Source of the DNA: Dehalococcoidia bacterium
Lineage (GTDB): Bacteria > Chloroflexota > Dehalococcoidia > DSTF01 > JACRBR01
DNA: 46,416 bases
Assembly: GCA_038240335.1 (NCBI GenBank)
Contig: JBBSDV010000001.1
Coordinates: 1-46,416, forward strand
Reading direction: 5' to 3'
Part shown: piece after piece, positions 1 through 14,889 of the stretch
Numbering within the stretch: position 1 is the first letter of the stretch
Layout of the letters: the number at the start of each line of letters is the position of its first letter
The notes under the pieces: generated by a model
What the model saw: only the letters and a program-made list of their open reading frames with translations
What the model was told of the DNA's origin: nothing
The model's database searches: none
Made by a program: the position numbers and the translations under genes

Positions 1-737
1 GCATCGGACTCGGCTTGCTGCTGCGGCAGCAGGCTGCCCCACGTGTTCAGCGCGGCGTCGTTGCCGTCGCCGTAGACGAGAGTCCACAGCGTCGGCTTGA
101 GGCTCGTCGCCTCGACGCCGGTACTGACGATATCCCAGTCGAAGCCGTAGGTCATGGCGATACCGCCGAAGGAGCTGACGCCGGGCGTCGTCGTCGCGGC
201 GGCGCCGAATGTGCCGGAGGCGCGCTTGATGATGCTGACGGTAGTCGTGGTCACCCAGGCGATCGCCATGTCGCCGCTGTTGTTCTTGTAGGCGACGGCG
301 AGATCGATGACGGATGCCGCGGCGGTTGCGATCGCCTGCTCTGCGCCGAAGGTGGCGCCGTTGTCGGTCGACTCTTTGAGCTTGACGCCCATGCCGGCGG
401 CGTCAACGTAGACAATCGCGACGCGCGCGCTCTTCGCGGCGCAGGCGACCTGCGTGCCGAGGCCGGTGGTGATGTTCGACCACGACGTCCACGGGCCGGC
501 GGCGGGGTTGGTGACGCGCTGCTGCTTGACGTTGCCGGAGTCGATGCGCACGCGCGTAACGCTGCCGTCGCCGGCGACGGCGATGTCGTGCCGGGCGATC
601 GGTTGCGCCGTGCTATCGAGGAGCGTGAACTCGAGGCGGCGGGCGCCGACGATGCTGTTGGTGACGACGACGTCGACCTGCGGTTCGGTGCTGGCGCTTT
701 GTTGGGCGGCGAGCAGTTCTAGGGAGAGAGATCTCAT
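1..737 (-). CDS. BNR/Asp-box-containing (sialidase-like beta-propeller?) protein; C-terminus lies beyond the window edge
   Basis: Own translation of the minus strand from ATG at 737-735 (GGAGA 5 nt upstream): MRSLSLELLAAQQSASTEPQVDVVVTNS...LKESTDNGATFGAEQ...TLWTLVYGDGNDAALNTWGS, open to position 1. It has no stop in the window, so it is absent from the ORF track. It contains one canonical Asp-box, S-x-D-x-G-x-T-F. The listed + ORF 15..722 is an Arg/Gly/Asp-rich antisense artefact. Confidence 0.6.
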   Translation of the reverse strand, partial: MRSLSLELLAAQQSASTEPQVDVVVTNSIVGARRLEFTLLDSTAQPIARHDIAVAGDGSVTRVRIDSGNVKQQRVTNPAAGPWTSWSNITTGLGTQVACAAKSARVAIVYVDAAGMGVKLKESTDNGATFGAEQAIATAAASVIDLAVAYKNNSGDMAIAWVTTTTVSIIKRASGTFGAAATTTPGVSSFGGIAMTYGFDWDIVSTGVEATSLKPTLWTLVYGDGNDAALNTWGSLLPQQQAESD

Positions 738-1055
738 TCTTGTCTCCGTTGGCGTTCGTCGTTTGTCGTTCTTGAGCGTTGGTGCTGGTCGCGGGTTCGC
801 TGGGTGGGGTAGCGAATCACAGCGGTAAAAGAGAAAGAAGAAAGAAAGTTGCCGGCGGACGTCCCCGTACCCCCGGCAGCCGTCGTGGCGGCTGCACTCC
901 GTATCGGATCCAGAACTTCGCAACGGATTCGGCGCGGCGGCGGCTGGTGCGCGACTGCATTCAGTTTTCGGATCGCCGGAAACGCACCTCTCACCTCCCA
1001 CCTCTCGAATCGACTTGCAGGCGCCCCCACCTCTCATCTCTCACTTCTCACTGCC
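738..1055. repeat. Intergenic heptanucleotide-period tracts (738-814 G/T-rich on +; 984-1011 and 1028-1055 units CACCTCT CATCTCT CACTTCT CACTGCC)
   Basis: Read directly. Consecutive 7-nt units share a register. No credible ORF covers them. Confidence 0.6.
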
Positions 1056-1061
1056 CCGCGG

Positions 1062-1703
1062 TCAGTACTTGACGCGGTTCTGTTCGAAGATGCTGGGGGC
1101 ATCGGTGGTGTAGAGGCGGCGCTGGCGGACGGTTTGGGCGCGGCCGATGCGCGTGGTCTCGCGGCGGAAGTCGCGCAGGCGCTCTTCTCCGAACGATTTG
1201 TAGCGGCCCCAGACGTCGTCGCCGCCCGTATTGATGCGGTTGGTCGCGAACGACGTCCAGTCGAGCGCGGCATAGCCCGCGGCGCCGAGCGCGACGAGAT
1301 CCTCGTGGGGGACGGGCAGCGTGGATGTGGCGCCGTCGACGGTGTGGAGCTTCGTCCAGAAGACGTTGACGTTTTCGATGCCGTTCGGCGGCGCTGTCGC
1401 ATCGAGGGTGATCGTGGTCTGCCACGAACTGAAGCCGACGAGGCGCGGCGGAAACTCGCCTACCGGCCACTCGACGGCTTCGACGGCGACGAGGCTGGTG
1501 AGGGAGGCGACGCTAATGTCGCGGCTGCCCGCGGCCGTCGTCAGGGTGGATTTCTGTTCGAGCGGGGCGCGGAGGCTGTACTCGGCGACGGCGCGGCCGA
1601 TGTGCCGATCGAGGACAGCGTCGGTCCAACGGTAGGCGCTGCTGTCCTCGTCATGTAGATCCTGGCGGACGCGGGCGCGGATGGTGGTGATGGTTGTCGG
1701 CAT
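1062..1703 (-). CDS. Hypothetical protein (213 aa)
   Basis: This is the inner part of ORF 1062..1919. ATG at 1703 is preceded by AAGGAGA 9 nt upstream. The protein starts MPTTITTIRARVRQDLHDEDSSAYRWTDAVLDRHIGRAVAEY and has balanced composition. The 72 residues upstream in the track ORF are translated heptamer tract (TSHISLRASISRRTPTSHLQ). Confidence 0.6.
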   Translation of the reverse strand: MPTTITTIRARVRQDLHDEDSSAYRWTDAVLDRHIGRAVAEYSLRAPLEQKSTLTTAAGSRDISVASLTSLVAVEAVEWPVGEFPPRLVGFSSWQTTITLDATAPPNGIENVNVFWTKLHTVDGATSTLPVPHEDLVALGAAGYAALDWTSFATNRINTGGDDVWGRYKSFGEERLRDFRRETTRIGRAQTVRQRRLYTTDAPSIFEQNRVKY

Positions 1704-1726
1704 GGGTGTTGGTCTCCTTAGTTGGG

Positions 1727-1966
1727 GCGGTTGGAGGTGAGAGGTGGGAGTGCGGCGCGAGATGGAAGCGCGAAGCGAGATGTGAGAAGTGGGAAAACGG
1801 CGAACGGGACGCGGAGGCGATACGCGCGTTGTGTGTCGGAGTCGTTTTGACGGCGACTTATGCGCGTAGGATCGCAGCAGCTCGTTTCCTCTCGTTTGCG
1901 CCTCATCTCGATCTCTCACTTCTCACCTCTCGCCTCTCACTCACCCCTCGCCTGCCACTTCGCCGG
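1727..1966. repeat. Two opposed heptamer tracts (1727-1830 GGAGGTG AGAGGTG ... GTGAGAA GTGGGAA on +; 1883-1966 ATCTCTC ACTTCTC ACCTCTC GCCTCTC on +)
   Basis: Read directly. The two halves are mutually complementary in kind: gtgagaagtg near 1782-1791 versus cacttctcac near 1916-1925. Confidence 0.6.
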
Positions 1967-2641
1967 GCGGGCGGCGGGATCGGCGCGGGAAATGGGGGAT
2001 GCGCGATCGCCGGGGAGGGTGCCGGCGGCGGGGCGAGCGATCGGTACGGGCTCGGCGGCGATGTAGGTGACGCGGAGGCGCGGGGCGACGGTGAGCGCGG
2101 GGTCGGCGCGGAACGACGCCCACTTTGTGCCGGCGCTGGTGCTTTCGTCGTTGGCGCGCAGGCGCAGCAGCAGCTTGCCGCCGCGGTTTGTGATCGCATC
2201 GATGACGAAGGTGAGCAGGCCGCCGATCGTGATGTCGCCGAGAGCGCTCGGTGATGTGAAGCCGACTGCGGCGGGCGGCGTCGCGATATCGCCGCCGGCG
2301 GTCGTCCATGCGGATGCTGTCTTGTAGTTGTTCCAGTCGCCGCTGGCCGCGTCCCAGTCGGCTCGCGTGAGCCGCTCGATTGACGCCGGCCAGGCGCTGG
2401 GGCCGAGGATGGCGCCGCAATTGAGAATGAGGTCCGCGGCAGTGATCGCGTCCGTGAGGGCGAGCGGGCGGCCGGCGGCGGCCGCGCCGAAGACGTCGAA
2501 CGCGCCAATGCAGCGGTCGAGATTGACCTTGCTGCTGCCGGCAACGATGGTGCCGAGACTCCACATGTTCGTATTGACCGCGCCCGGGTGGAAGAGGTCG
2601 ATGTACTCGGTCGAAGTGACCACGAATGTCGATTGCGGCAT
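1937..2641 (-). CDS. Hypothetical protein (234 aa), possibly a beta-sandwich/carbohydrate-binding-like module
   Basis: ORF track; ATG at 2641 with GGGAGAAG 8 nt upstream. Composition is globular-like (MPQSTFVVTSTEYIDLFHPGAVNTNMWSLGTIV...). The segment GGKLLLRLRANDES only faintly recalls the DNRLRE/CBM96 motif, so no family is assigned. Confidence 0.55.
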   Translation of the reverse strand: MPQSTFVVTSTEYIDLFHPGAVNTNMWSLGTIVAGSSKVNLDRCIGAFDVFGAAAAGRPLALTDAITAADLILNCGAILGPSAWPASIERLTRADWDAASGDWNNYKTASAWTTAGGDIATPPAAVGFTSPSALGDITIGGLLTFVIDAITNRGGKLLLRLRANDESTSAGTKWASFRADPALTVAPRLRVTYIAAEPVPIARPAAGTLPGDRASPISRADPAARPAKWQARGE

Positions 2642-2674
2642 GTGACGACTTCTCCCGGGGTGTGTTGTGTGTGA

Positions 2675-3097
2675 TTACGGCATGTCGGGGGTGTTGCCAT
2701 CGGCATCGCTGACGCGGAGCGCGACGCTGCGGATGTCATGCAGTTCGCCGCTGAGGACGCCGGTCAGATCGCCGCGTCTGCGCTGCGGCGCGACGCCGCT
2801 GATCTGCTCGGCGAATCGCTGGAGGCGCGGCGGGACGTCGGTGTGCACGGTCGTGATTCCCGCCTCGGCGGCAAAACGCAGGGCCTCGCGCACGAGGAGG
2901 GTGAGGGCGCGGAGCCGCTGCCGGGGCGCACCGTTGGCGTCGCCGATGATCATCTCGCCGAAGTAGCCGCAACCGGCGACGGCGTTGATCGGGCAGCGTA
3001 CGCTCGCGAGCGGCGTCGCGTCGCCGGCACGAACAGTGACGACGAAGGCGAACGGCCCGTCGTGTGCTGCGCTGGCGGTGAGGGGTTCGGACCACAT
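2675..3097 (-). CDS. Hypothetical protein (140 aa)
   Basis: ORF track. It lies 33 nt upstream of the next minus-strand gene and has non-artefactual composition. No SD is seen upstream of ATG 3097. Confidence 0.45.
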   Translation of the reverse strand: MWSEPLTASAAHDGPFAFVVTVRAGDATPLASVRCPINAVAGCGYFGEMIIGDANGAPRQRLRALTLLVREALRFAAEAGITTVHTDVPPRLQRFAEQISGVAPQRRRGDLTGVLSGELHDIRSVALRVSDADGNTPDMP

Positions 3098-3340
3098 TGT
3101 TAGTTTGTCGTTCGTAGTTCGTAGTTTGTGGTTTCTAGTCGAATCTGCTGGGGCGTGGTGCTATGGTCGCTGCCCTGCTGTGGAACTCAAAGATGTGGCG
3201 TCACTTCGCGCGGAGCTGAGGCACGTCGTTTGTGGTTCGTGGTCGCAGTTCGGGTGCGACGGGGCGTGGTGCTCTGGTGCTGCGGTCGAGTGGGTGGGGA
3301 AGCGGTTCGGGTGCGGCGAGGTTGAGCCGAGATGGGGAGT
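3098..3340. repeat. About 240-bp field of heptamer-period sequence (TGTTAGT TTGTCGT TCGTAGT TCGTAGT TTGTGGT TTCTAGT at 3098-3139, then degenerate G/T-rich units)
   Basis: Read directly. The + ORFs listed here (3128..3325, 3232..3471) are Gly/Trp/Arg/Val-rich artefacts. Confidence 0.6.
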
Positions 3341-3357
3341 GGAGGCTCGCGGCCGCG

Positions 3358-3392
3358 ACGTCAGTCCTCTCGTCGGTAGAGAGGACTGACGT
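3358..3392 (-). terminator. Perfect 14-bp stem hairpin downstream of the VOC gene
   Basis: acgtcagtcctctc (3358-3371), 7-nt loop gtcggta, gagaggactgacgt (3379-3392). It starts about 57 nt past the stop at 3449. No clear U-tract. Confidence 0.45.
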
Positions 3393-3448
3393 GCGGCGTC
3401 ATCGATCGCGGGGAACCGGCGGAGTTGCGCGCTTCGGGACGGCAGAGC

Positions 3449-3808
3449 CTATGCGGGGTGGTACTCGATGAGCTGCATGTAGTTGCCGTCGGGATCGGTG
3501 AACGTGGAGATGACGCCGCCCCAGTCTTGCTTACCCTCTTTGCGGATGAACTTCACGCCTGCTGCTTCGAGGCGGGTCTGCTCCGACTTGATGTCGTCGA
3601 CCATGAGGCTGAGGAGGACGCGTGCCGGTTCCTTCGTCGGGCCCGTAACCTCGCTGTGACTGTCGATCATGAACGGCGTCGAGCCCGCCATCATGGCGAA
3701 TTCGCCCATATCCGGGTTGGGCGGCAGGCCAACGGTATCGCGGTAGAAGGCGCCGAGGCGCTGCGGATCCGGGCTCGTCACGTTGATGATGATTTGGTTG
3801 ACGTTCAT
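3449..3808 (-). CDS. VOC (glyoxalase/bleomycin-resistance/dioxygenase) family protein
   Basis: 119 aa. The pattern MNVNQIIINVTSPDPQRLGAFYRDTVGL...FTDPDGNYMQLIEY is typical of single-domain VOC proteins. Confidence 0.8.
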   Translation of the reverse strand: MNVNQIIINVTSPDPQRLGAFYRDTVGLPPNPDMGEFAMMAGSTPFMIDSHSEVTGPTKEPARVLLSLMVDDIKSEQTRLEAAGVKFIRKEGKQDWGGVISTFTDPDGNYMQLIEYHPA

Positions 3809-4020
3809 GGTTTGCTCCTTCGTGTACGTGTGCCGTTTCTTCTTGCTTCATCGTACGGGACTGCTGGTGACAGCGTTCTGTCAGGAGGAATTGCGAAGTT
3901 TTGCGGCAGATGTCTCTGAGGACGGAGTGATGACATGAGATCCGGGGCTGGAACGCGCGCGCGATGGAGCCTCGTTACGAGGCGGGCTTGTGCTGGGGAC
4001 GGTGGAGTGGAGGCGTACGA

Positions 4021-4137
4021 AGAAGATCGTTCGCTGGCGCTCTGGATGACGGGTTTTCGTGCTGGGACGGGCGGTCGGCCTGAACGATGGGCGATTTCCG
4101 TAGGACGAAGAAGGTCCTTCGCTTCGCTCTGGATGAC
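4021..4137 (-). repeat. Two tandem copies of the dispersed GTCATCCAGAGCG..GCGAAG.ATCTT element
   Basis: Minus-strand reads are GTCATCCAGAGCGCCAGCGAACGATCTTCT (4050-4021) and GTCATCCAGAGCGAAGCGAAGGACCTTCTT (4137-4108). Their flanks are also similar (gggttttcgtgctgggacgg / aggctttttcgccgggacgg). The track ORF 3881..4300 translates them as HPERSEGP / HPERQRT. Confidence 0.7.
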
Positions 4138-4214
4138 AGGCTTTTTCGCCGGGACGGCGCATCTGCCTGCAATGGCGCGCTTTGTGAGCGGCGTCGGCCG
4201 GCAACTGGTAGCCG

Positions 4215-5174
4215 ATGGCGGGCGTACAATGCGGTATGGGGCGTCGGATCTGGATTTTCACACAGCAGACGTATTTTGGGTTTACGCGCGACAACTGCAC
4301 CCAACTCGCGGCGGCGATCTCCTACTACGTGCTCTTCTCGATCCTTCCGCTGGCGATCCTGGTGGTGTCGATCTTCGGCATCTTCCTCAATAGCGGCGAT
4401 CTGCGGAACGCGATCGTCGACCGCGTGCTGGACGCACTGCCGCTGACGCAGACCGAAGGCCGGACGTCGGTCAACAACGCGCTGGACAACGTCAACCGCG
4501 TGAGCGGAACGGTCGCGGCGCTGGGACTTCTCGGCACGCTGTGGACGGCGTCGGCGGTGTTCGCTTCGATCCGAAAATCGCTGAACGCAGTGTGGAAGGT
4601 GCAGGAACACCGGCCGTTCGCGCAGGCGAAGCTCGTCGACATCATGCAGGTGGGTGTGCTGGGGGCGATGCTGCTGGCCTCGATGCTGCTGACGGGCGTG
4701 CTGCGGGCGATCCGGTCGCTCAGCGCGCAACACGTCGGGCCGCTGGCCGGCAGCAACCCGTTCTGGGCGGTGCCGCCCATCGTCCTCCCGGCGGTGCTGT
4801 CGCTGACGACATTCCTCCTGCTGTACCGCATCGTGCCGGCGGCGCGGCCGGGCTGGCGCGACGTGGTTCCGGGGGCCGTGGTGGCGACGCTGTTGTTCGA
4901 GGCACTGAAGAACTCGTTCGCGATCTACATCGCGAACTTCAACAACTTCGACGTCGTCTACGGGTCGCTGGCCGGCGCTCTGCTGTTCCTTTTCTATACG
5001 TTCCTTTCGTCGAACATCCTGCTGATCGGCGCCGAGCTTTCGCGGACGTTCCAGCGCTATCACATGGGAGAGCTCGATGCCGAGCTGTACCCGCCCTACC
5101 CGGGGCCGACGGTTGCGACGCGCGCCTTCCGCGCCGTCAAGGGGTTGTTTGTGCGCAGCAGCGAGGAGACATGA
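4215..5174 (+). CDS. YihY/BrkB (ribonuclease BN-like) family membrane protein
   Basis: 319 aa. The segment FTRDNCTQLAAAISYYVLFSILPLAILVV, multiple TM segments and the C-terminal NILLIGAELS are typical of the family. The start (4215 or 4236) is uncertain. Confidence 0.8.
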   Translation: MAGVQCGMGRRIWIFTQQTYFGFTRDNCTQLAAAISYYVLFSILPLAILVVSIFGIFLNSGDLRNAIVDRVLDALPLTQTEGRTSVNNALDNVNRVSGTVAALGLLGTLWTASAVFASIRKSLNAVWKVQEHRPFAQAKLVDIMQVGVLGAMLLASMLLTGVLRAIRSLSAQHVGPLAGSNPFWAVPPIVLPAVLSLTTFLLLYRIVPAARPGWRDVVPGAVVATLLFEALKNSFAIYIANFNNFDVVYGSLAGALLFLFYTFLSSNILLIGAELSRTFQRYHMGELDAELYPPYPGPTVATRAFRAVKGLFVRSSEET

Positions 5175-5244
5175 GGTGAGATTGGTGACTGGTGACTGGT
5201 GACTGGTGGGTGATGATTGGTCGTCGGTCGTCGGTTATTGATTA
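5175..5244. repeat. Ten consecutive heptamers immediately after the yihY-like stop
   Basis: GGTGAGA TTGGTGA CTGGTGA CTGGTGA CTGGTGG GTGATGA TTGGTCG TCGGTCG TCGGTTA TTGATTA. Confidence 0.8.
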
Positions 5245-5277
5245 ACGGGCGCGGCAGGCAGCGCACGGGAGGTGGAG

Positions 5278-6009
5278 ATGCGTCTCGACGGGAAGGTCGT
5301 GCTGATCGCCGGGGCGGGCGGGCGGCAGGGGACGGCGGTGCCGATCGTGTTTGCGCGCGAGGGAGCGACGTGCGTGCTCGCCGGTCTCGCCGGCGACGAA
5401 CTGGATCGGCTGGCCGCTCACATTGTCGCCGGCGGCGGCAACGCAATCGCGCGGGCGACGAACCTCGTCGATGCGAGCGAGGCGGAGGCTGCGGTGCAGC
5501 TGACCATCGAGCGGTATGGGCGAATCGACGTGCTCTACAACAACACCGGGATCTACGCCGGCGGCGATGTGCGGACGGCCGATACTCCGCTCGACCAGTG
5601 GCAGCAGGTAATCGACGCGGATCTGCGGTCGCACTTCCTGACCGCGCGGTTCGCGCTGCCGGCGATGCAGCGCCAGGGTGCGGGGGCGATCATCAACATC
5701 GCGGCGGCGCGGCCGGCGAGGCTCGGCGGAAACGTCGCGTACGCGGCGGCAAAGAGCGCGATCATCGGCATGACGCAGAAGATGGCGCGCGAGTACGCCG
5801 CAGACAACATTCGCATCAACTGCATCTGCCCGACGAACATCCAGTCTTCGCCGGACGCGCTGGCGGCGCCGCTGCCAGCGCGAATGCTGGCTCGCGATGG
5901 CACGCCGGAGGACGTCGCCTATGCGGCGCTGTTTCTCGCGTCGGACGAAGCTTCATGGATCACCGGCGCGGCGCTCGTCGTCGACGGCGGGGCGGAGGCA
6001 GCGGGCTAG
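5278..6009 (+). CDS. SDR family oxidoreductase
   Basis: Motifs GAGGRQG (nucleotide-binding), NNTG and YAAAK (catalytic YxxxK). ATG 5278 is preferred over the track start 5272 (GTG) because GGGAGG lies about 7 nt upstream. Confidence 0.85.
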   Translation: MRLDGKVVLIAGAGGRQGTAVPIVFAREGATCVLAGLAGDELDRLAAHIVAGGGNAIARATNLVDASEAEAAVQLTIERYGRIDVLYNNTGIYAGGDVRTADTPLDQWQQVIDADLRSHFLTARFALPAMQRQGAGAIINIAAARPARLGGNVAYAAAKSAIIGMTQKMAREYAADNIRINCICPTNIQSSPDALAAPLPARMLARDGTPEDVAYAALFLASDEASWITGAALVVDGGAEAAG

Positions 6010-6115
6010 TCGCCGATTGTTGTGGAGGCGGTGAGGGTTGGGACGTTTGATCAAGCATCGATCCGTCGACGTTCGTTCCGCGACCAGACCAGCGACCAGC
6101 AACACAACCAGGCGA

Positions 6116-6646
6116 CTAACGAGCGGCCCAGCCGTCCTTGACCCACTTCCAGTGCATGCGGCCGTGATCGGCGTTGACCGCGAGAATGGCGCCGACGGTG
6201 CCGTCGGCCCAGGGCGCGCCGGGCACCTTCTCGAGTAGCTGTTCGTCACTGAGGCTTGCGAGCAGTGCGAGGGTCTCGGCGCGGGCGGCCTGGCCAAGGG
6301 CGACGACGTCGCTCAGCGACTTCGAGCGTTGCTCGCGAACCCACTGTTCGGTCATCTCATGAACGGTGGCCATCACTTGCTCGCGTGTCCGCGGCTGGCC
6401 CTCTGCGTCCCGCGCGAAACCGACGGCGTTGCGGTCGCCGGCGAGGTGACGCTTGATCATGCGGACGAAGTTCCTCTCGATACCGGCGAGGTGGGCGAGG
6501 TGATCCATCGCGCTCCACGATGACTCCGGATCGTGCTCGCTCGGCGTGGCGGCGCGGAGGAGGTCGGCCTCCGGGAGCTGGGCGTAGGTGTCGAGGAGCC
6601 ACGCGCGATCGGTGTTGAGCTTAATCTCGATCTCGGTGCGGTTCAT
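6116..6646 (-). CDS. DinB-family (four-helix-bundle, metal-dependent) protein
   Basis: 176 aa. WSAMDHLAHLAGIE ... VNADHGRMHWKW gives the His pattern typical of DinB/ClbS-like bundles. Confidence 0.65.
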   Translation of the reverse strand: MNRTEIEIKLNTDRAWLLDTYAQLPEADLLRAATPSEHDPESSWSAMDHLAHLAGIERNFVRMIKRHLAGDRNAVGFARDAEGQPRTREQVMATVHEMTEQWVREQRSKSLSDVVALGQAARAETLALLASLSDEQLLEKVPGAPWADGTVGAILAVNADHGRMHWKWVKDGWAAR

Positions 6647-6660
6647 GCGCTGTGGTCCGA

Positions 6661-6709
6661 CTGGTGACTGGTGACTGGTGACTGGTGACTGGTGACTGGT
6701 GACTGGTGA
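6661..6709. repeat. Perfect (CTGGTGA)x7 tandem array
   Basis: Seven identical contiguous copies, beginning 14 nt upstream of the minus-strand start codon at 6646. Confidence 0.95.
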
Positions 6710-6791
6710 AGCGTATATCGCGGTAACGGCTCAGGCTACCGTTGACCAGTGACGAGCGAGCAACACCGAACCGGCCGACGACCAGCGACCG

Positions 6792-7208
6792 CTAGTCCTC
6801 GGCGGCATGGCGGATGGCCATGGCGGGAGCGGGCTGGCCGAAGCGCGTCCAGAGCTTGAGGGCGCTCCGAAGCTGCTCCATGCGCTCCTCGTCGCAGTCG
6901 AAGCCCTCGAGCAGGCAGCGGTCGAGGTGGTACTCCATGAGACGCGCGCCGACCTGGTCGACGGCGCTGCGGATGGCCATCGACTGGGTCAGCATGTCCT
7001 CGCAGTCGCGACCCTCCTCGAGCATCTTGACGATGCCGCGCGCCTGGCCTTCGATCCGGCGTAGGCGGGCGGCAATGTCGGCGGCAAGCGGCTTGGTCGT
7101 GACATTCGGCGACGCGGGGCTTTCAACGAGGGCATCGTCGCCGCCGGCTCGGGTCGGAACCCGTGTCGTACTTGCGGTCTTGATTGGTTGTTCCGAGTTG
7201 GTGGCCAT
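6792..7208 (-). CDS. csoR: CsoR/RcnR-family metal-sensing transcriptional repressor (CsoR-type C-H-C ligand set)
   Basis: In ...RIEGQARGIVKMLEEGRDCEDMLTQSMAIRSAVDQVGARLMEYHLDRC..., Cys-x24-His-x3-Cys matches the Cu(I) CsoR spacing. The start is taken at ATG 7208 (GGAG 9 nt upstream) rather than the track start 7256. Confidence 0.8.
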   Translation of the reverse strand: MATNSEQPIKTASTTRVPTRAGGDDALVESPASPNVTTKPLAADIAARLRRIEGQARGIVKMLEEGRDCEDMLTQSMAIRSAVDQVGARLMEYHLDRCLLEGFDCDEERMEQLRSALKLWTRFGQPAPAMAIRHAAED

Positions 7209-7254
7209 GATGCTGCTCCGATGGCACTGTACATTTTCTTGCGGAGGGCTTGAC

Positions 7255-7271
7255 ATACCCTATGGGGGTAT
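7255..7271. promoter_or_regulatory. CsoR-type operator ATACCC-N5-GGGTAT
   Basis: ATACCCTATGGGGGTAT is an AT-flanked C-tract/G-tract inverted repeat of the type bound by CsoR proteins. It lies between csoR (minus) and trxA (plus). Confidence 0.65.
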
Positions 7272-7298
7272 AGTACTCTGAGTGCAGACAGAAGTCAA
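7270..7298 (-). promoter_or_regulatory. Sigma-70-like promoter for csoR (TTGACT-17-TACTAT)
   Basis: On the minus strand, TTGACT is at 7298-7293, followed by a 17-nt spacer and TACTAT at 7275-7270. The -10 overlaps the operator by 2 nt (7270-7271); the rest of the operator lies just downstream. Confidence 0.55.
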
Positions 7299-7349
7299 TC
7301 CGCCGCCTGCAGGGGCATCGCGACGGGCAAGCAGAAGGAGACGATGACG

Positions 7350-7673
7350 ATGGCCAAGCCGAGTGAAGTAACAGACGCGAATTTCGATGCCGAGGTGATC
7401 AACTCTGACACGCCGGTTCTGGTGGACTTTTGGGCGCCGTGGTGCGGTCCTTGCCGCATGGTCGCGCCGATTGTCGACGAGCTGTCGACCGAGTACGACG
7501 GCAAGGTGAAGTTCGTCAAGCTCAACACGGACGACAACGTGAAGACGGCCTCGACCTACGGCATCCGCAGCATTCCGACGCTGCTGGTGTTCAAGGGCGG
7601 CGAGCCTGTGGGCTCGATCATCGGTTTCCGGCCGAAGAGCGACCTCAAGAAGAAGCTCGACGCGGCGCTGTAG
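7350..7673 (+). CDS. trxA: Thioredoxin
   Basis: WCGPC active site and about 107 aa. AAGGAG at 7335-7340 favours ATG 7350 over the track start 7344. Confidence 0.95.
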
Positions 7674-7775
7674 GCTGCCGCGCAACCTTCGGCGGCAGAC
7701 GAGCTGCGAACCGAATCGAAGACGACAGAGAGCGGCATGATGCCGCTCTCTGTGCGTGTGCAGGAAAGACAGCGC

Positions 7776-8744
7776 ATGACGACGAGCACGACCGACTACG
7801 ACATCATCATCATCGGCGCCGGGCCAGCCGGACTCTCGGCCGGCATGTACGCGGCGCGAGCACGGCGGCGGACGCTGATGATCGAACGCAAGATCACAGG
7901 CGGCCAGATCGCGCTGACCGCCGGCGTCGAGAACTATCCCGGCATCGACCTGATCAACGGCTTCGACCTGGCACAGGCGATGCACGAGCAGGCGACGAAG
8001 TACGGGATGGAGACGACGCCCGGCGATGCGACCGGCATCGAGCAGTTGGCGGACGGCCGCCACCGCGTGCGGACGGACGAGGGCGACTACACCGGGCGCG
8101 CCGTCATCCTCACCGGCGGCGCCGACTACAACCGGCTCGGCGTGCCGGGCGAGGATCGGCTGACCGGCTTCGGCGTCTCGTACTGCGCGACGTGCGACGC
8201 GGCGTTCTTCAAGGACCACGATGTCGCCGTCGTCGGCGGCGGCGATGCGGCGCTCGATGAGGGTCTCTTCGTGACGCGCTACGTCCGGCACGTCAGCCTG
8301 ATCCATCGTCGCGACGCGCTACGGGCCAGCGCGATTCTGCAGGAGCGCGCGTTTGCGGAGCCGAAGATCGAGTTCGTCTGGAACACGGTCGTCGAGGAGA
8401 TCCTCGGCGATGACGCGGTGACGGGGGTGCGTATCCGCAACGTCGAGAGCGGCGAGACGTCGGTGCTGCCGGTGACGGCCGTCTTCATCTTCATCGGCCT
8501 GACGCCGAACACCGACTATCTGCGCGGGCTGGTGAAGACTGATGCCGACGGCCATATCTATGTGAACGAATGGATGGAGACGGAGGTGCCCGGCCTCTTC
8601 GCTGCGGGCGACATTCGCGCGAACTCGGCGCGGCAGGTCGTCAGCGCCGCCGGCGACGGCGCGACCGCGGCGATCCGCGCGGACCACTACATCAGCGACA
8701 GCTTCGCCGCCGCTGTTGGAAGCGGGAAGCGCGCGATCGGTTGA
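7776..8744 (+). CDS. trxB: Thioredoxin-disulfide reductase
   Basis: GAGPAG FAD motif, CATC redox-active disulfide, and a second dinucleotide fold VVGGGDAA. The start is taken at ATG 7776 (MTTSTTDYDIIIIGAG) after AGGAAAG. Confidence 0.9.
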   Translation: MTTSTTDYDIIIIGAGPAGLSAGMYAARARRRTLMIERKITGGQIALTAGVENYPGIDLINGFDLAQAMHEQATKYGMETTPGDATGIEQLADGRHRVRTDEGDYTGRAVILTGGADYNRLGVPGEDRLTGFGVSYCATCDAAFFKDHDVAVVGGGDAALDEGLFVTRYVRHVSLIHRRDALRASAILQERAFAEPKIEFVWNTVVEEILGDDAVTGVRIRNVESGETSVLPVTAVFIFIGLTPNTDYLRGLVKTDADGHIYVNEWMETEVPGLFAAGDIRANSARQVVSAAGDGATAAIRADHYISDSFAAAVGSGKRAIG

Positions 8745-8860
8745 GGTCGTACGGATCCCGGGGCCAAGTTCGGAACCTTGTCGTTGATCCGGAGCGTGAT
8801 GAACCCGTTGGCGCACGGAAACCAAAGAAGCGCTAGAAGCACTGCAACGGAGGTAACGTT

Positions 8861-8882
8861 GGCTGGATCTCGAGATCCAGCC
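8861..8882. terminator. Perfect 22-bp palindrome between convergent trxB and thiolase genes
   Basis: GGCTGGATCTCGAGATCCAGCC, a candidate bidirectional terminator hairpin with no U-tract. Confidence 0.45.
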
Positions 8883-8911
8883 TCCAACCTCCACTGACCA
8901 AACAGCCAGCC

Positions 8912-10219
8912 CTAGATCGCCTCGATGATCGTCGATATGCCCATGCCGACGCCGATGCACTGCGTCGCCAGGCCGTAGCGCTTGCCCGACCTCCGCAGTT
9001 CGTGCGCGACTGTCGAGACGAGCCGCGCGCCCGTCGCACCGAGCGGATGGCCGATCGCGATCGAGCCGCCGTTGACGTTCACCTTGTCCATCGAGATGCC
9101 CAGCTCGCGGCACGACGGGATCACCTGCGCCGCAAACGCCTCGTTGAACTCGACGCGGTCGATCTGATCTGCCGAGATGCCCGCGTGGCGCAGCGCCTTG
9201 TTCGTCGCCGGGATCGGCCCCAGGCCCATCACCTGCGGCTTCACACCGCCCACGCCCATGCCGATAATGCGCGCCAGCGGCGTCAGGCCGAGCTCGCGCG
9301 CCTTGTCCTCCGACATCAGCAGCGCCGCTGAGATGCCGTCGTTCGTCGGGCAGGAGTTGCCGGCCGTGATCCGCAGGTCCGTGTCGCCGAAGCTCTTGAT
9401 GCCGCCGACCGGCTTCAGTGCGCCGAGCCCCTCGACGTTCGTGCCGCGGCGCAGGCATTCGTCCTGCTCAAACGTGATCTGCTTGCCGTGCTCGTCCGCC
9501 AGCCAATTGCCCTGGTCGTCGAACACGGGCAGCTCGACATCGAGCGGAATGATTTCGTCCTTGTAGATGCCCTTGTCGTAGGCCGCCGCCACGCGCCGGT
9601 GGCTCTCCGCCGAGTACTCGTCCATCTCCTCGCGCGACAGGTTGTACACCTCCGCGACGTTCTGCGCTGTCTGCGTCATCGACGTGATCGCGGGCGCATC
9701 GAGAATGTAATCCGGGAACGGCACCGAGAAGTTCTTGTCGTGATCCGGCGTCATGTTGCGCTGCATCTCGTTCATCTGCGGCAGCTTCTTGTTGAACTCC
9801 GTGACGCGCGTCTTCGGTGCGCCGTTACCGCCGCCCGCGAGCGATCGGCCCATGCGCTCGATGCCGAGCGCGATGCCGCACTCCGTCGCGCCCACCATGA
9901 TCGACTGCGCCACCCGGTGCAGCGTCTCCATGCTCGAGCCGCACTGGCGGTTCGAGTCGAAGGAGCACGCCTCGGCAGGCAGCCCGGCGAGATGGGCGAC
10001 GTTATTCGCGCCGATCAGGATCAGCTCGCCCGCGCCCATCACATTGCCCAGGCCGATGTCCTCGACCATCCACGGACTGACCTTCGGATTGCGCTCCATC
10101 AGCGCGCGCAGCACCCTGGCGCCCGCATCGTCGAGCCGCGTCGCTACGAGACTGCCGCGCCCGCCGCGCCCGAATGCCGATCGCACACCATCGACCAGCA
10201 CCACGTTCTTGAGTTCCAT
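8912..10219 (-). CDS. Thiolase-family acetyl-CoA C-acyltransferase
   Basis: NRQCGSS (nucleophilic Cys), GHPLGATGARL, CIGVGMG. The start is taken at ATG 10219 (MELKNVVLVDGVRSAFG) with GGAGG upstream. Confidence 0.9.
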   Translation of the reverse strand: MELKNVVLVDGVRSAFGRGGRGSLVATRLDDAGARVLRALMERNPKVSPWMVEDIGLGNVMGAGELILIGANNVAHLAGLPAEACSFDSNRQCGSSMETLHRVAQSIMVGATECGIALGIERMGRSLAGGGNGAPKTRVTEFNKKLPQMNEMQRNMTPDHDKNFSVPFPDYILDAPAITSMTQTAQNVAEVYNLSREEMDEYSAESHRRVAAAYDKGIYKDEIIPLDVELPVFDDQGNWLADEHGKQITFEQDECLRRGTNVEGLGALKPVGGIKSFGDTDLRITAGNSCPTNDGISAALLMSEDKARELGLTPLARIIGMGVGGVKPQVMGLGPIPATNKALRHAGISADQIDRVEFNEAFAAQVIPSCRELGISMDKVNVNGGSIAIGHPLGATGARLVSTVAHELRRSGKRYGLATQCIGVGMGISTIIEAI

Positions 10220-10552
10220 CGAAATACCTCCGCTATACGTCATAAGGGCGCCAAGCCGACGCCAGACGCGAATTCCAGTCTAATCTGCGGCTTCTCTGGA
10301 AGCTAGCGGCATCAGCTTCTTGTTTGAAACTCGTCGTTGACGGCGTTAGGCCGGTGATTACGCGCGCAAAGCACGTGCGTCGAGGGAAGAACGGAGGACC
10401 GAACCCGGATAGCGGCGCATCTCCGAGAGGCCTCGGATGGCGAGCAGTGGGGACGCGTGCGAAGGCGCTAAAGACGTCGCGCAAATGGACTGGCGGCGCG
10501 TTGCGCCGTTCGTCATTCTTCAAGACGCCACCCGCGACCAGCAGGGATCGCA

Positions 10553-11434
10553 ATGACCTCACAGCGCGACATTCTCGAGTTCTACGTCAAACCGGCGAAG
10601 ATGGCCGACCCCGGCGAGCACGCGCCGATGTTGGGCGCGTTGCCGTCCGACGTCGAGTCGCTCGCGCGTATTGCGCAGGGCCTGCTGCTGCATGAACATA
10701 TCGCGCCCGCCTACGGTGTTACGCTGACGGACGAGCGACGGAGCGAGGTTCACCTCCGCTCGAACGAGCAACGACTGGATCGATTCCTCGGGCGAGACCC
10801 GCGGCCGCTCGACATCGCCAGGCCCGCCGCCGAGCGGCTGATCAGCAACTGCCGACACACAAGCTTGCTGATGGTCGCAATGCTGCGCGCCCGGCAAGTG
10901 CCGGCGCGAGCGCGTTGCGGATTCGGCGGCTACTTCGAGCGCGGCCAATTCGGCGATCACTGGGTCTGCGAGTATTGGCGCGCCGATGAACAGCGCTGGC
11001 TGCTCGTCGACGCACAGATCGACGAGGTGCAACGGAAGCTCTTCGACATCGACTTTGACCTCCTCGACGTGCCGCGCGATCGCTTCCTCGTCGCGGGAGA
11101 TGCGTGGGCCCGATGCCGCGCTGGCGAGCTGGACGCGGCGAACTTCGGGATCCTTGATATGAGAGGCCTCTGGTTCATCTCGGGGAATCTCGTTCGCGAC
11201 GTCGCCGCGATCAACAACATGGAGATGCTGCCGTGGGACGTGTGGGGCGCAATGACCGGGCCCGGGGAAGCAATGAATAGCGAGCGGATTGCTCTCTACG
11301 ACCGGTTGGCGGCTCTCACGCACGATCCTGACGCGTCATTCGTCGAGCTCCGCGACCTCTATGAGAATGACGAGCGACTGCGCGTGCCTCCAACCGTGCT
11401 GAACGCCGTCCTGCGCCGCATGGAGTCGATCTAG
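10553..11434 (+). CDS. Transglutaminase-like cysteine-protease-fold protein
   Basis: A Cys (SNCRHTSLLMVAMLRARQVPARARCGFGGY), then His (DHWVCEYW) and Asp (LLVD) in transglutaminase-core order. Confidence 0.7.
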   Translation: MTSQRDILEFYVKPAKMADPGEHAPMLGALPSDVESLARIAQGLLLHEHIAPAYGVTLTDERRSEVHLRSNEQRLDRFLGRDPRPLDIARPAAERLISNCRHTSLLMVAMLRARQVPARARCGFGGYFERGQFGDHWVCEYWRADEQRWLLVDAQIDEVQRKLFDIDFDLLDVPRDRFLVAGDAWARCRAGELDAANFGILDMRGLWFISGNLVRDVAAINNMEMLPWDVWGAMTGPGEAMNSERIALYDRLAALTHDPDASFVELRDLYENDERLRVPPTVLNAVLRRMESI

Positions 11435-11512
11435 CGAGCGGCGGCCGGGAGGCGGCGAGATCATCCACGAGCGTGCGCGGCACTGGCTCACTTCGGCATC
11501 CCTCGAGCCGAT

Positions 11513-12109
11513 CTAGTCCGCTGCAACCCCGATCGTCGCGCGGATCGCCTCGATCTGCGGCCGGTGATTGTCGTCGTGGATGCGCTGAAACACCATCCAC
11601 TCGCGGCAGTTGAGATCGCCGAACATGAAGTGCCGGAAGGTCGTCTCCGGCAGCGCCGCACCGTCCGTCGAGCGGATCACGTTCAGCATCGAAGCATGCG
11701 CATCACAAGCCGCGGCCCGAGCATCAGCAAGCGTCTCGAACCGCTTCAGCGTGACGCCGTCCTGTGCCGATGGCTGCTCGGCCGCCTTGCCGAAACCCGG
11801 CGGTAGTTGCCCGTTGACGAGAGCGGCACTGAGCGTCGCGAACAGCCGCTTCCCCGTCACGACGTGGTCCATCGTCTGCAAGATCGACCATTCGTCGGGC
11901 GCCGGCTTCCGCATCGCCTCGCTCTCCGAGACGCCGTCGATCGCCGCAAGCAGCGCGGCGTGGCCTTCCTCGACGATCGCCTCGATCTCCGCGCCGCTCT
12001 TCTCGGCGCCTTCGCGCATGAACGCGATCGCGGCCGCCTTCTTTTCCTCCGGCATCAGCATCGTCTGGCTGCCATCCGGATTCTTGATATAGCTCATCTC
12101 GAGATCCAC
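11513..12109 (-). CDS. DinB-family protein
   Basis: 198 aa. EWSILQTMDHVV ... FQRIHDDNHRPQI gives the His triad pattern of DinB-like bundles. The start could instead be 12097. Confidence 0.65.
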   Translation of the reverse strand: MDLEMSYIKNPDGSQTMLMPEEKKAAAIAFMREGAEKSGAEIEAIVEEGHAALLAAIDGVSESEAMRKPAPDEWSILQTMDHVVTGKRLFATLSAALVNGQLPPGFGKAAEQPSAQDGVTLKRFETLADARAAACDAHASMLNVIRSTDGAALPETTFRHFMFGDLNCREWMVFQRIHDDNHRPQIEAIRATIGVAAD

Positions 12110-12202
12110 GCATCACCTCCATGGAACATCTGACACGACAGCCGCCGCATGCTAAGCCGCGCTCGACGCGTCACGCCACAACGCGCATCGCGCATCGCGC
12201 GA

Positions 12203-14759: not shown

Positions 14760-14825
14760 CGCCGCCGTCCCCGGAGGGCGCATCCGGCTAGACGGCGTCG
14801 ATGCATCACGAACTCGCCGGAAAGC

Positions 14826-14862: not shown

Positions 14863-14889
14863 GCGAAATCTCGTGTCACCGCACGCCGG

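Follow-up and report, generated by a model that had tools for sequence, protein, structure and literature searches.

Why should tandem heptamers lying between genes respect which of their strands faces a reading frame? The question is raised by the head-to-tail spacer at 6647–6791 of a 46,416-nt stretch of DNA (the window, analysed here at its full length), in which a sequence-only reading had claimed that such tracts are polarised relative to genes, being G/T-rich on the sense strand behind stop codons and C/A-rich ahead of start codons. Followed along the minus strand, this focal spacer runs from a stop codon through degenerate G/T heptamers (6791–6745), a unique core and (TCACCAG)7 to an ATG (Table 1). 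The perfect array, (GACTGGT)×7.3 on the plus strand according to TRF, stands 12 nt 5' of the DinB_2 start codon, itself backed by homologues of 176–182 aa, and is C/A-rich on the sense strand of that gene. At the 6745–6791 border, the best 7-periodic window is 13/21 and the outward keto skew +6.

The unit in the dinB leader differs among relatives, being (TCACCAG)7 here, (CACCAAT)~4 in L124 and L126 and a mixture in L125, and the array keeps the same position and orientation here and in the (CACCAAT)~4 relatives, whose protein is 81% identical. An exact look-up of two proteins of the window gave no entry; by homology, the DinB protein was found only on short contigs from short reads, which end inside the array.

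One polarity rule at both ORF borders

Skew statistics were computed over the 29 spacers of the window, each at least 40 nt long, with the left 50 nt and right 50 nt taken as edges. Keto skew on the plus strand averages +0.13 on the left and −0.17 on the right and is higher on the left in 24 of the 29 spacers (Wilcoxon p = 4.1e-5), which bears out the claimed polarity: the left edge is G/T-rich, the right edge C/A-rich. When the spacers are oriented by gene, the sequence behind stops has a GC skew of +0.18 (p = 3.7e-4); ahead of starts, TA skew amounts to −0.26 (p = 1.3e-3) and keto skew to −0.14 (p = 0.019). Because the sense-strand skew of coding DNA in the window is ~0, these edge values are not spill-over from codon usage.

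The period of seven has the same distribution. Identity at lag 7 is 0.321 across intergenic DNA versus 0.261 in coding DNA, and within spacers it reaches 0.377 in the 60-nt edges, compared with 0.283 in the middles and with 0.27 at lags 6 and 8 in those same edges; TRF reports period 7 at 6659–6709 and at more than 15 further sites. Of 56 ORF borders, 15 (8 starts, 7 stops) adjoin a period-7 tract that exceeds the 99th percentile of shuffles, the median gap being 5 nt at stops and 22 nt at starts. Read outward from the ORF, G exceeds C in 14 of these 15 tracts, and keto skew is positive in 13 (p = 0.007).

The two rules of the earlier reading thereby collapse into a single symmetric one: read 5' to 3', the G-rich strand leads away from the adjoining ORF, at start and stop borders alike. 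Starts and stops are independent in this respect, because divergent spacers have arrays at their starts and convergent spacers at their stops. At 6010–6115, for example, the right arm (6080–6115) is C/A-rich on the plus strand, that is, G/T-rich behind the dinB stop, and in the 48-nt convergent spacer 40227–40274 the AACTACA/AACGACA repeats, C/A-rich on the plus strand, follow the stop of a minus-strand GFO gene. Every tract that had been listed from the sequence alone is present where it was placed, with the composition ascribed to it. The tracts at 985–1051 and 17388–17443 are C/T-rich and not C/A-rich, and tract polarity is described more consistently by G>C versus C>G.

Among individual tracts, (GGTAGTT)4 at 19044–19071 lies beyond the stop of gene 19135–23874 and beyond its strong hairpin. 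The gene at 3–737, earlier called a BNR gene, had no match in a Pfam search, and an Rfam scan of the whole window matched no family.

Table 1. Heptamer tracts of the window and the genes flanking the focal spacer.
Position	Strand	Feature	Basis or remark
738–806	minus	TTGTCGT-type on plus strand; C/A-rich leader of minus-strand gene 3–737	
985–1051	minus	CACCTCT repeats on plus strand; AGAGGTG (G-rich) after stop of minus-strand gene 1062–1703/1919	
3101–3139	minus	TAGTTTG/TAGTTCG ×5.6 on plus strand; C/A-rich leader of minus-strand gene 2675–3097	
5175–5244	plus	(TGGTGAC)×3.7 then (GGTCGTC)×2.4, after brkB stop codon	TRF
6010–6115		Convergent spacer; left arm G/T-rich after adh_short stop	G+T 0.64 left, 0.25 right
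6116–6646	minus	DinB_2 family gene, 3' of focal spacer	Pfam PF12867, E = 1.1e-12
6659–6709	minus	(TCACCAG)×7.3, perfect heptamer array	TRF period 7, 100% matches, score 102
6710–6744	minus	Non-repetitive spacer core with small local hairpin AACGG...CCGTT	Sequence; hairpin in MFE structure
6745–6791	minus	Degenerate G/T-rich heptamers (CGGTCGC TGGTCGT CGGCCGG TTCGGTG ...) right behind CsoR-like gene stop	Sequence reading
6792–7256	minus	CsoR/RcnR-type metal-sensitive repressor gene, 5' of focal spacer	Pfam PF02583, E = 1.6e-22
8883–8911	minus	C/A-rich on plus strand; G/T-rich after thiolase stop	Plus-strand G+T 0.19
13945–13988	plus	C/A-rich degenerate heptamers; methyltransferase gene leader, divergent spacer	
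17388–17443	plus	CGTCCCG ×7.9 (C/T-rich, G-poor), 68 nt 5' of gene 17512	TRF periods 7 and 21
18650–18700	plus	G/T-rich (GTCGCTG / GTTGCCG) after stop of gene 17512–18639	
19044–19071	minus	(ACTACCA)×3.9 on plus strand; (GGTAGTT)4 on the gene's strand	TRF 100% matches
24677–24711	plus	AATCACC/AGTCACA repeats, leader of gene 24728	
27024–27114	minus	TTGGTTG and (GGCGGCT)×3.7 on plus strand; C/A-rich alr leader	alr by Pfam
28350–28395	minus	CTGCAAA-type on plus strand; G/T-rich after LysR gene stop	
33921–33955	minus	TCACCAG/TCACCAA on plus strand; CTGGTGA-type right behind FtsX permease stop	
38264–38291	plus	C/A-rich (ACTACCA, ACTCGCA), dapA leader	Orthologous tract in L127
40227–40274		48-nt convergent spacer; CTGGTCG repeats after tsaD stop	

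The rule across phyla and among known heptamer repeats

Outside the window, polarity was tallied at 120 loci that had been chosen for CTGGTGA arrays, the tally being made on arrays of other units; these loci span Cyanobacteria, Planctomycetota, Acidobacteriota, Verrucomicrobiota, Bacteroidota, Betaproteobacteria, Actinobacteria and others, and a megablast of the window against them gave no match. The non-query heptamer arrays obey the outward-G rule by 47 to 5 (p = 1.3e-9), with 15:2 at starts and 32:3 at stops. The rule survives restriction to high-scoring genes and also holds in relatives under the collection's own gene calls. Of the CTGGTGA tracts, 14/128 fall inside called genes, and for the post-stop arrays of this unit the near-side and far-side distances have medians of 18 and 156 nt. 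Arrays of (CTGGTGA)n occur in many cyanobacterial genomes, and some loci, most of them cyanobacterial, violate the rule with (TCACCAG)n right behind stop codons. The outward-G rule is general across phyla.

Nor is the rule new, having already been published by Rehm et al. (2015, PLoS One; PMC4692102) for the G-rich heptameric SSRs GGGAATC of Xanthomonas and GGGGA(C/T)T of Nostoc PCC 7120. The repeats of these workers lie near the 5'-neighbouring ORF regardless of ORF orientation, with the G-rich strand sense within 50 bp after stops and antisense within 50 bp before starts; they form convergent inverted pairs in one spacer and differ in length and sequence between close relatives, and the authors left their function unsettled. 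The window arrays are like them in being tandem 7-nt intergenic units that adjoin ORFs, follow the same strand rule and form convergent pairs. They differ in host, here a high-GC Chloroflexota/Dehalococcoidia-like lineage, and in that many units coexist within 46 kb in place of one dominant unit: CTGGTGA, GGTAGTT, CTGGTCG, GGCGGCT, TAGTTTG, AGAGGTG and CGGGACG. Most units, moreover, are free of GGG runs and so form no G-quadruplexes (G4), the focus of that paper; the first five just listed have no GGG, and their arrays do not offer at least four G-tracts of at least three G. Tandem, intergenic and depleted from coding DNA, G-rich outward near ORFs, and variable in unit and copy number between close relatives at the dinB leader, the window arrays belong to a broader kind of polarised heptanucleotide SSR and not to its G4 subclass.

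The STRR (short tandemly repeated repetitive) heptamers, with units CCCCAGT, TTGGTCA and CAACAGT, are likewise tandem repeats in non-coding DNA, and the CACCAGT seen here is one base off STRR1 (CCCCAGT). STRRs were defined, however, in low-GC filamentous cyanobacteria, mostly as fingerprinting markers, and we know of no gene-relative polarity rule in their original description. That description, of heterocystous cyanobacteria, is by Mazel et al. (1990, cited in PMC4692102).

The start-codon half of the rule recalls the direct repeats with unit TAACTGA that marine Beggiatoaceae carry, as do some Cyanobacteria and Bacteroidetes (MacGregor, 2015; PMC4679880). Of these repeats, 147 of 170 sets are directed toward the start, often where a canonical RBS is missing, and a post-transcriptional or translational role was proposed for them. 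The window arrays are similar in position and orientation bias, with 8 start borders carrying arrays 0–45 nt upstream, several of them without an SD-like 4-mer. The unit is unrelated, in contrast to the single conserved one of the TAACTGA sets, which is A-rich, not C/A-rich, and often ends 1 nt before the start. Theirs is also mainly a start-codon phenomenon, for which no complementary G/T-rich post-stop class was described, whereas in the window the post-stop class is as large as the start class. More broadly, the LSSRs of Mrazek et al. (2007, PNAS), as related in PMC4679880 and PMC4692102, have units of 5–11 nt with heptanucleotides most abundant, are over-represented in intergenic DNA and were proposed to be generated by polymerase slippage; as related there, the description is at the level of a survey, unlike the present one.

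Folding of the flanking transcripts and a proposed reading based on their selection

The RNA strands of an array fold very differently. The (UCACCAG)7 of the dinB leader is predicted to be essentially unstructured (−0.6 kcal/mol), and its complement, (CUGGUGA)7, folds at −20.7 kcal/mol. For 28-nt tracts, mean energies are −4.5 kcal/mol in the outward and −1.6 kcal/mol in the inward direction (p = 1e-7). Over the 80 nt after stops, sense RNA (mean −28.8 kcal/mol) is more stable than antisense (−24.1; p = 0.008); over the 80 nt before starts the MFE of the two strands does not differ significantly. Much of this asymmetry is an automatic outcome of composition. Outward units fold no better than the same units permuted (p = 0.70), so that hairpin formation does not look selected, and selection for self-folding of the outward strand was rejected on this result. 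The inward strand is less structured than its permuted units (−1.5 versus −3.0 kcal/mol; p = 0.019, a modest effect over 31 units), which points to selection for open inward RNA.

C/A-rich arrays lie 5–45 nt 5' of start codons, including those in divergent spacers where no co-directional gene stands upstream. Upon inverting the arrays in silico, the cost of opening the RBS rises by 2.5–9.7 kcal/mol in five of eight leaders (from 6.1 to 13.6 kcal/mol in the leader with the 13945–13988 tract). An SD-like 4-mer precedes just 12 of 36 genes, which makes SD-poor initiation possible. The earlier suggestion that G-poor leaders serve SD-independent translation gains from these results and from the openness predicted for (UCACCAG)7, although the other three leaders barely respond to inversion (at most 0.6 kcal/mol). 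C/A-rich unstructured enhancer leaders are familiar from the CA-repeat enhancers of E. coli and the poly-CAA of TMV omega. With these the window leaders share a G-poor, repetitive, unstructured sequence before the start, which would favour 30S/S1 binding, a resemblance of possible mechanism and not of membership; the enhancers are individual elements of engineered or viral origin, do not make up a genome-wide class and have no post-stop counterpart.

The reading that we prefer, at a probability of roughly two in five, is that the arrays are heptanucleotide microsatellites made by slippage, and that selection on the neighbouring transcripts decides which orientation is kept. Arrays would arise and turn over by slipped-strand mispairing, and beside ORFs almost only one orientation would persist, as orientation sets the character of the transcript. 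RNA entering the ORF would be G-poor (C/A- or C/U-rich), would have hardly any structure and would contain neither SD-like nor NUG start triplets; at a start border, such an open 5' leader may favour correct translation initiation. RNA leaving the ORF would be G/U-rich, would fold on itself through G-U wobble and would often hold stop triplets in all three frames, thus providing a structured 3' trailer at a stop border.

The data show the rule, its independence of border type, its spread over phyla, the turnover of repeats at a constant place and orientation in one leader, and the strand-asymmetric folding; that slippage generates the arrays and that selection on RNA maintains their orientation is what we infer. 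The explanation is weak at stop borders, where the benefit of a G/U-rich trailer is far less clear than that of a G-poor leader, and orientation selection leaves unexplained both the build-up of arrays at ORF edges and the period of seven itself. Also counting against it, RNA-seq gave Rehm et al. (PMC4692102) no clear expression effect of their repeats. The symmetric rule could equally well stem from a cause at the level of DNA or of RNA polymerase.

Other possible causes of the polarity

A polymerase-level cause would be a one-way transcription barrier, in which a G-rich non-template strand halts RNA polymerase leaving the ORF in either direction. The means might be wobble hairpins, pause-prone G/TG sequence, R-loops or G4, and the complementary direction would be either free of any barrier or a C-rich Rho-loading pad clearing untranslated RNA that enters the ORF. 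Such a barrier accounts for the identical rule at starts and stops. The composition of (UCACCAG)7 is rut-like, with 49 nt of RNA predicted to be unstructured at 43% C and 14% G set against the 60–80 nt or more of C-rich, G-poor, unstructured RNA of a rut site. To our knowledge, though, Cyanobacteria lack Rho; they obey the rule all the same, and Rho is thus not its general cause.

The barrier also fits the strand-specific self-folding just described, one case of which follows the brkB stop codon. There, the two G/U-rich arrays of 5175–5244, the top terminator-like match, are predicted to form a wobble-paired hairpin specific to the sense strand: 5175–5271 folds at −39.0 kcal/mol (z = −4.6) in the sense direction and at −12.6 kcal/mol (z = −0.65) in antisense, and within it 5188–5235 forms a terminator-like wobble stem of 20 pairs with the tail UAUUGAUU (z = −4.6). 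In Xanthomonas, G4-competent repeats are enriched at transcript starts and stops (Rehm et al., PMC4692102). Against a barrier stand the outward units that fold no better than permuted ones and, for most units here, the want of the GGG runs that a G4 needs. We hold it to be doubtful.

Unlikely, in our judgement, is a cause at the DNA level. Arrays might be bound by a protein with affinity for DNA or ssDNA; they might be GT-rich, Chi-like recombination or RecA-loading signals facing an exonuclease that nears the ORF; or polarity might be imprinted at the birth of the array, as when slippage synthesis extends 3' ends at spacer breaks, which would automatically leave G/T on the left and C/A on the right. 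As a DNA-level process predicts, the rule follows position in the spacer and not gene direction. CTGGTG, the core seen most often, is also that of the E. coli Chi sequence (GCTGGTGG), and one of the loci, L102, carries (CTGGTGG)n. The outward strand is strongly enriched in GTGA, TGG and GGTG (GTGA 18:1 versus ~4 expected), a bias that is not independent, because the loci were picked for CTGGTGA arrays. One short tract has opposite orientations in close relatives, so that orientation is not simply frozen. The great diversity of units within the window, on the other hand, argues against any single sequence-specific protein or Chi (a sequence-specific Chi with the CTGGTG core was judged unlikely on this ground), and an origin in break repair fails to explain why arrays hug the ORF border at medians of 5–22 nt.

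It is similarly unlikely that the polarity is no by-product of optimised leaders or trailers and betrays a general and so far unrecognised ORF-boundary process across phyla, whether carried by one-way RNA/DNA elements or by arrays that 3'-end slippage synthesis or GT-rich, Chi-like recombination signals leave at spacer breaks. A one-way element might pose a G/U-wobble or pause/R-loop barrier to polymerase leaving the ORF and an open path to polymerase entering it. Such a process is compatible with the identical start and stop rule, with the 47:5 tally and with the fact that the rule needs neither G4 potential nor stop codons.

The inverted look of head-to-tail spacers had led the sequence-only reading to propose that, once transcribed, the G/T and C/A halves pair with each other into a long imperfect hairpin, which would terminate or insulate transcription or protect 3' ends. 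Several observations are in its favour. The convergent spacer 40227–40274 beats its shuffles (z = −2.15 and −2.54), as do 33806–33955 (z = −2.3) and the focal plus strand (z = −1.9); by duplex energy the arms of the focal spacer rank third of 26; and positions 1–20000 hold 23 terminator-like sites versus 9.9 ± 3.5 in shuffles, about twice expectation. In Xanthomonas, moreover, there are 70–75 convergent inverted pairs per genome, and transcripts begin or end at the repeats more than at controls (Rehm et al., PMC4692102).

The proposal is nonetheless not supported. On the sense strand the focal spacer folds like its shuffles (z = −0.75, with −1.86 for the antisense strand), as does 28290–28404, with z ~0 on both strands; at 6010–6115 the values are −1.26 and −1.19. 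The hairpin at 28337–28352 has a loop of 3 nt (GGCTGG-ACA-CCAGCC) in place of the acac first read. Across 26 spacers, own arms pair no better than arms taken from different spacers (−25.3 versus −25.2 kcal/mol; permutation p = 0.45), and units differ between the arms of one spacer. A U-tract is absent behind the putative long hairpins, and with this and its sense z the focal spacer does not look like an intrinsic (Rho-independent) terminator; nor, given the equal arm energies and units that vary by spacer, are the arrays palindromes of the REP, BIME or MITE type. Leader arrays in divergent spacers have no partner in the same RNA. Many spacers possess one arm only; the inversion thus results from two edge rules acting side by side and is no designed palindrome. 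On the preferred, transcript-selection reading, those rules would set a G/T arm beside a C/A arm in head-to-tail and convergent spacers. A paired-arm hairpin we consider quite unlikely.

Very improbable, and already largely refuted, is the view that these are neutral microsatellites whose polarity is an artefact of gene calling or base composition: G/T-rich units do hold stop triplets at which ORFs end, which could inflate the post-stop class in gene calls, but arrays with equal stop counts on both strands obey the rule by 15:2, start borders obey it by the same 15:2 where such bias would run opposite, it is kept with high-scoring genes alone and with independent calls in relatives, and in annotated genomes GGGAATC, with no stop triplet on either strand, follows it too (PMC4692102). 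Two further candidates were rejected. Stop content and G>C are confounded overall among arrays, and an all-frame stop cassette as general driver of orientation was set aside on the equal-stop arrays and on GGGAATC; transcription-coupled C-to-T mutation bias would make the sense strand of 5' leaders G/T-rich as well, contrary to observation.

Heptanucleotide repeats are reportedly the most abundant class of long microsatellites in many bacterial genomes; their arrays break short-read assemblies, and start-codon calls may be confused by them. The window displays the published outward-G rule without G-quadruplex potential and with many units, in a high-GC Chloroflexota-like lineage. The candidate mechanisms are narrowed accordingly: G4, paired-arm hairpins and the supply of stop codons are weakened, and the openness or structure of RNA and a polarity at the level of DNA are the candidates that remain.

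One strand rule at starts and stops

The sequence-only reading had proposed two rules for the heptamer tracts, namely that the sense strand is G/T-rich after stop codons and C/A-rich before start codons. Both are true, and in all four gene arrangements they are algebraically one statement: on the plus strand of every spacer the left edge is G/T-rich and the right edge C/A-rich, and, as reasoned from the tally of tracts, the G-rich strand runs 5' to 3' away from the adjacent ORF (outward) regardless of ORF direction. Its tract positions are right, and the other tracts it listed were all found as described; as to details, the loop of the 28337-28352 hairpin is 3 nt long, two tracts called C/A-rich are C/T-rich, and "BNR" is a putative label.

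Across the 29 window spacers, keto skew is +0.13 in the left 50 nt and -0.17 in the right 50 nt, the left exceeding the right in 24 of them (Wilcoxon p = 4.1e-5). GC skew past stops is +0.18 (p = 3.7e-4) and TA skew ahead of starts is -0.26 (p = 1.3e-3), the sense-strand skew of the window's coding DNA being ~0. Lag-7 identity is highest, at 0.377, in the 60-nt spacer edges, with 0.283 mid-spacer and 0.261 for coding DNA. Period-7 tracts, defined as exceeding the 99th percentile of shuffled intergenic sequence, occur at 15 of the window's 56 ORF borders (8 starts, 7 stops), and 14 of the 15 have G>C when read outward. Because divergent spacers carry start-border arrays (13945-13988, 24677-24711, 38264-38291) and convergent ones carry stop-border arrays (6010-6115, 8745-8911, 40227-40274), neither class can be put down to the other.

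This positional and strand observation has already been published by Rehm et al. (2015; PMC4692102) for the GGGAATC repeats of two Xanthomonas genomes and the GGGGA(C/T)T repeats of Nostoc 7120. Those arrays lie near their 5'-neighbouring ORF whichever way it points, the average distances being 28 nt and 160 nt. These workers found the G-rich strand to be sense at ≤50 bp past stops and antisense at ≤50 bp upstream of ORFs, with 70-75 convergent inverted pairs per genome and with array length and sequence differing among species; they found no function for the arrays. Unlike those repeats, the units of the window are without G-quadruplex potential and many different ones stand side by side, in a host lineage that is new for the phenomenon. 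TAACTGA arrays pointing toward start codons have been assigned a proposed translational role (MacGregor, 2015; PMC4679880), and Nostoc heptamer repeats upstream of recF and recO had modest effects on reporters (Pradhan et al., bioRxiv 10.1101/2022.06.06.494920). Mrazek et al. (2007), as their work is cited elsewhere, found heptanucleotides to be the most abundant class of long simple sequence repeats (SSRs) and put forward a slippage hypothesis for long SSRs.

The spacer 6647-6791 and other features of the window

Gene calling with a self-trained codon model and Pfam gave about 37 genes in the window (65.8% G+C over 46,416 bp). No Rfam family was matched anywhere in it, and two long stretches, 23875-24727 (853 nt) and 29326-30084 (759 nt), are without a confident gene call. 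The minus strand of the spacer 6647-6791 reads, in order, TAG stop, G/T heptamers, unique core, (TCACCAG) array, 12 nt and ATG start. Directly upstream of the CsoR-like gene lies a GC-rich pseudo-palindrome that we take to resemble a CsoR-type operator and that suggests autoregulation; it overlaps the sole minus-strand sigma-70-like promoter match, a putative promoter from which csoR and dinB are possibly co-transcribed.

Features of the spacer 6647-6791 and its flanks, and copies of the dispersed repeat
Feature	Position	Strand	Detail
DinB_2 family gene	6116-6646	-	PF12867, E = 1.1e-12
CsoR/RcnR-type repressor gene	6792-7256	-	PF02583, E = 1.6e-22
Degenerate G/T-rich heptamers (CGGTCGC TGGTCGT CGGCCGG TTCGGTG ...)	~47 nt after TAG stop	-	
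Unique core	between G/T heptamers and (TCACCAG) array	-	35 nt
Perfect (TCACCAG)x7.3 array	6709-6659	-	12 nt before ATG
Putative operator ACCCTATGGGGGTATAGTAC	7257-7276		
Putative promoter TTGACT-17-TACTAT	7298..7270	-	
Dispersed repeat CATYCWGAGCGNCAGCGAAGRATCT	4024-4048	-	
Dispersed repeat CATYCWGAGCGNCAGCGAAGRATCT	27159-27183, 29665-29689, 29835-29859, 31388-31412	+	

The dispersed 25-nt repeat, with five spacer copies vs 0 expected by shuffling, is unrelated to the heptamers and may be a small mobile or REP-like element; a similar sequence occurs around 3400-3460 of L124, a contig of a relative. Also unrelated to the intergenic heptamers are coding tandem repeats with periods of 12, 24, 39 and 132 nt (19810-19937 and 45299-46060; GTCGGCGTGTTC-type on the plus strand), inside two large minus-strand genes.

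Other phyla, relatives and turnover

Exact matches to (CTGGTGA)3 were sought in one genome per GTDB species, and more than 120 loci came out, spanning Cyanobacteria, Planctomycetota, Acidobacteriota, Verrucomicrobiota, Bacteroidota, Betaproteobacteria, Actinobacteria, Chloroflexota and others; the window's own genome is absent among the 120 scanned. With genes called over these 833 kb by GC-binned codon models, CTGGTGA arrays lie closer to the 5'-side ORF in 57 of 87 cases (p = 0.005), and in 39 of 49 where that border is a stop (median 18 nt, vs 156 nt to the other side). Heptamer arrays of other units, which were not used for choosing the loci, have G>C outward by 47 to 5 (p = 1.3e-9), at starts (15:2) and at stops (32:3) and in every GC class; polarity in the scanned loci is kept with high-scoring genes alone. 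Exceptions to the rule are (TCACCAG)n arrays 0-15 nt past stops in the cyanobacterial loci L012, L031, L034 and L056 and in L009, L069 and L070. Across the arrays of other units, GTGA falls on the outward vs inward strand 18:1. At one further locus (L102), a (CTGGTGG)n array contains ACTGGTGGCTGGTGGCTGGTGG, each of its repeats including GCTGGTGG, the octamer of E. coli Chi.

For TsaD (about 80% identity) and DinB (64-75%) of the window, the closest proteins are labelled as from Dehalococcoidia or Chloroflexota MAGs. With the source collection's own gene calls, the relatives' contigs show the window's left/right keto asymmetry in 34 of 55 spacers (Wilcoxon p = 0.0066), including 6/6 in L124, 6/8 in L127 and 11/15 in L129; arrays are few in L128 and L131, and the asymmetry was not seen in their spacers. 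L129 offers textbook examples, namely a perfect (GGTTCTA)7 directly past the tsaD stop (10371-10420) and, in one ++ spacer (16683-16808), a left arm of TAGGGAC/TAGGGAT against a right arm of CCCTAGT. The TAGGGAC/TAGGGAT units resemble plant telomere repeats.

The orthologous dinB leader in relatives of 81% protein identity has (CACCAAT)~4 leading to an AGGAG Shine-Dalgarno (SD), where the window has (TCACCAG)7: place and orientation are equal, unit and copy number differ. Between brkB and adh_short, (TCGTCGG)2 lies in opposite orientation in the window (5219-5235) and in L124 (~1650-1665; 81% protein identity), so that a very short stretch is locally inverted between the two. Of the same strain there are three independent Logan contigs from short reads (L121-L123), whose first 41-42 nt lie inside (TCACCAG)n upstream of dinB; heptamer arrays break short-read assemblies. 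Together, the change of unit and copy number, the inversion and the contigs ending in an array fit a fast turnover of slippage type in which the array of the dinB leader keeps its place and orientation elsewhere is not simply frozen.

Predicted folding and the cause of the polarity

The reading that we favor, at a probability of about 0.42, is that slippage would generate heptanucleotide SSRs beside ORFs and that selection on the flanking RNAs would filter their orientation. On the leader side this would leave open, G-poor RNA without start triplets or SD-like sequence; on the trailer side, G/U-rich, self-structured RNA. The leader half is reasonably supported and the trailer half weak.

Predicted folding is strand-asymmetric: -20.7 kcal/mol for (CUGGUGA)7 vs -0.6 for (UCACCAG)7, and, for 28-nt RNAs of 130 arrays, a mean of -4.5 outward and -1.6 inward (p = 1e-7). 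The 80 nt past stops in the window give -28.8 kcal/mol sense vs -24.1 antisense (p = 0.008). The trailer after the brkB stop (5175-5271) folds at -39.0 kcal/mol in sense (z = -4.6) and -12.6 in antisense (z = -0.65); within it, G/U-rich (GGUGACU)n pairs with (GGUCGUC)n by G-U wobble in a predicted ~28-bp hairpin (5188-5235), in the sense RNA only, after which comes UAUUGAUUAA. Elsewhere, a strong long minus-strand hairpin, CACGCAGACACGGGCUCGCC-AACU-GGCGAGCCCGUUCUGCGUG (19072-19125), lies between the stop of a 1579-aa beta-helix/TSP3/dockerin gene and a (GGTAGTT)4 array that occupies the usual place of a U-tract.

Permuting the bases within units separates composition from base order. Inward strands fold more weakly than their permuted units (-1.5 vs -3.0 kcal/mol; p = 0.019), and outward strands fold no more strongly than theirs (p = 0.70). 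In silico inversion of the array adds 2.5-9.7 kcal/mol to the cost of opening the -18..+12 region in 5/8 leaders; in the remaining three the change is ≤0.6 kcal/mol, and in one of these, g17512, the tract lay outside the folded segment. An SD-like 4-mer is present in 12/36 genes and in none of several array-bearing leaders. The earlier suggestion of G-poor leaders is plausible, and the interpretation that contained it is supported in part, its long hairpin excepted.

A one-way transcription barrier or Rho pad would best account for the symmetry between starts and stops, but it gains no support from the unit-permutation test and, to our knowledge, Rho is missing from cyanobacteria; we consider it unlikely. 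Slightly less probable is a DNA-level cause, which could be a protein that binds the arrays, a Chi-like signal rich in G and T, or a polarity imprinted at synthesis.

The pairing of a spacer's inverted halves into a long hairpin, as the sequence-only reading envisaged, is more doubtful still. The sense RNA of 6647-6791 folds at -44.1 kcal/mol vs a shuffle mean of -41.4 (z = -0.75; antisense z = -1.86), with z = -0.04 and -0.25 for 28290-28404 and about -1.2 for 6010-6115. Among spacers folded singly, only the short convergent 40227-40274 (z = -2.2 and -2.5) and 33806-33955, with an ordinary GC hairpin inside, stood out. Over 26 spacers, duplexes between the left and right arm of one spacer (-25.3 kcal/mol) equal those across spacers (-25.2; permutation p = 0.45), so the inverted halves follow from the composition that the edge rule entails and are not the matched arms of a palindrome.

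An artefact is very improbable: the rule holds 15:2 among arrays whose two strands match in stop-codon content, so the polarity is not created by ORFs being called to end at stop-rich units.

The analysis confirms the observation, which is statistically robust. The phenomenon is a known one, shown here to be general, symmetric and independent of G4.
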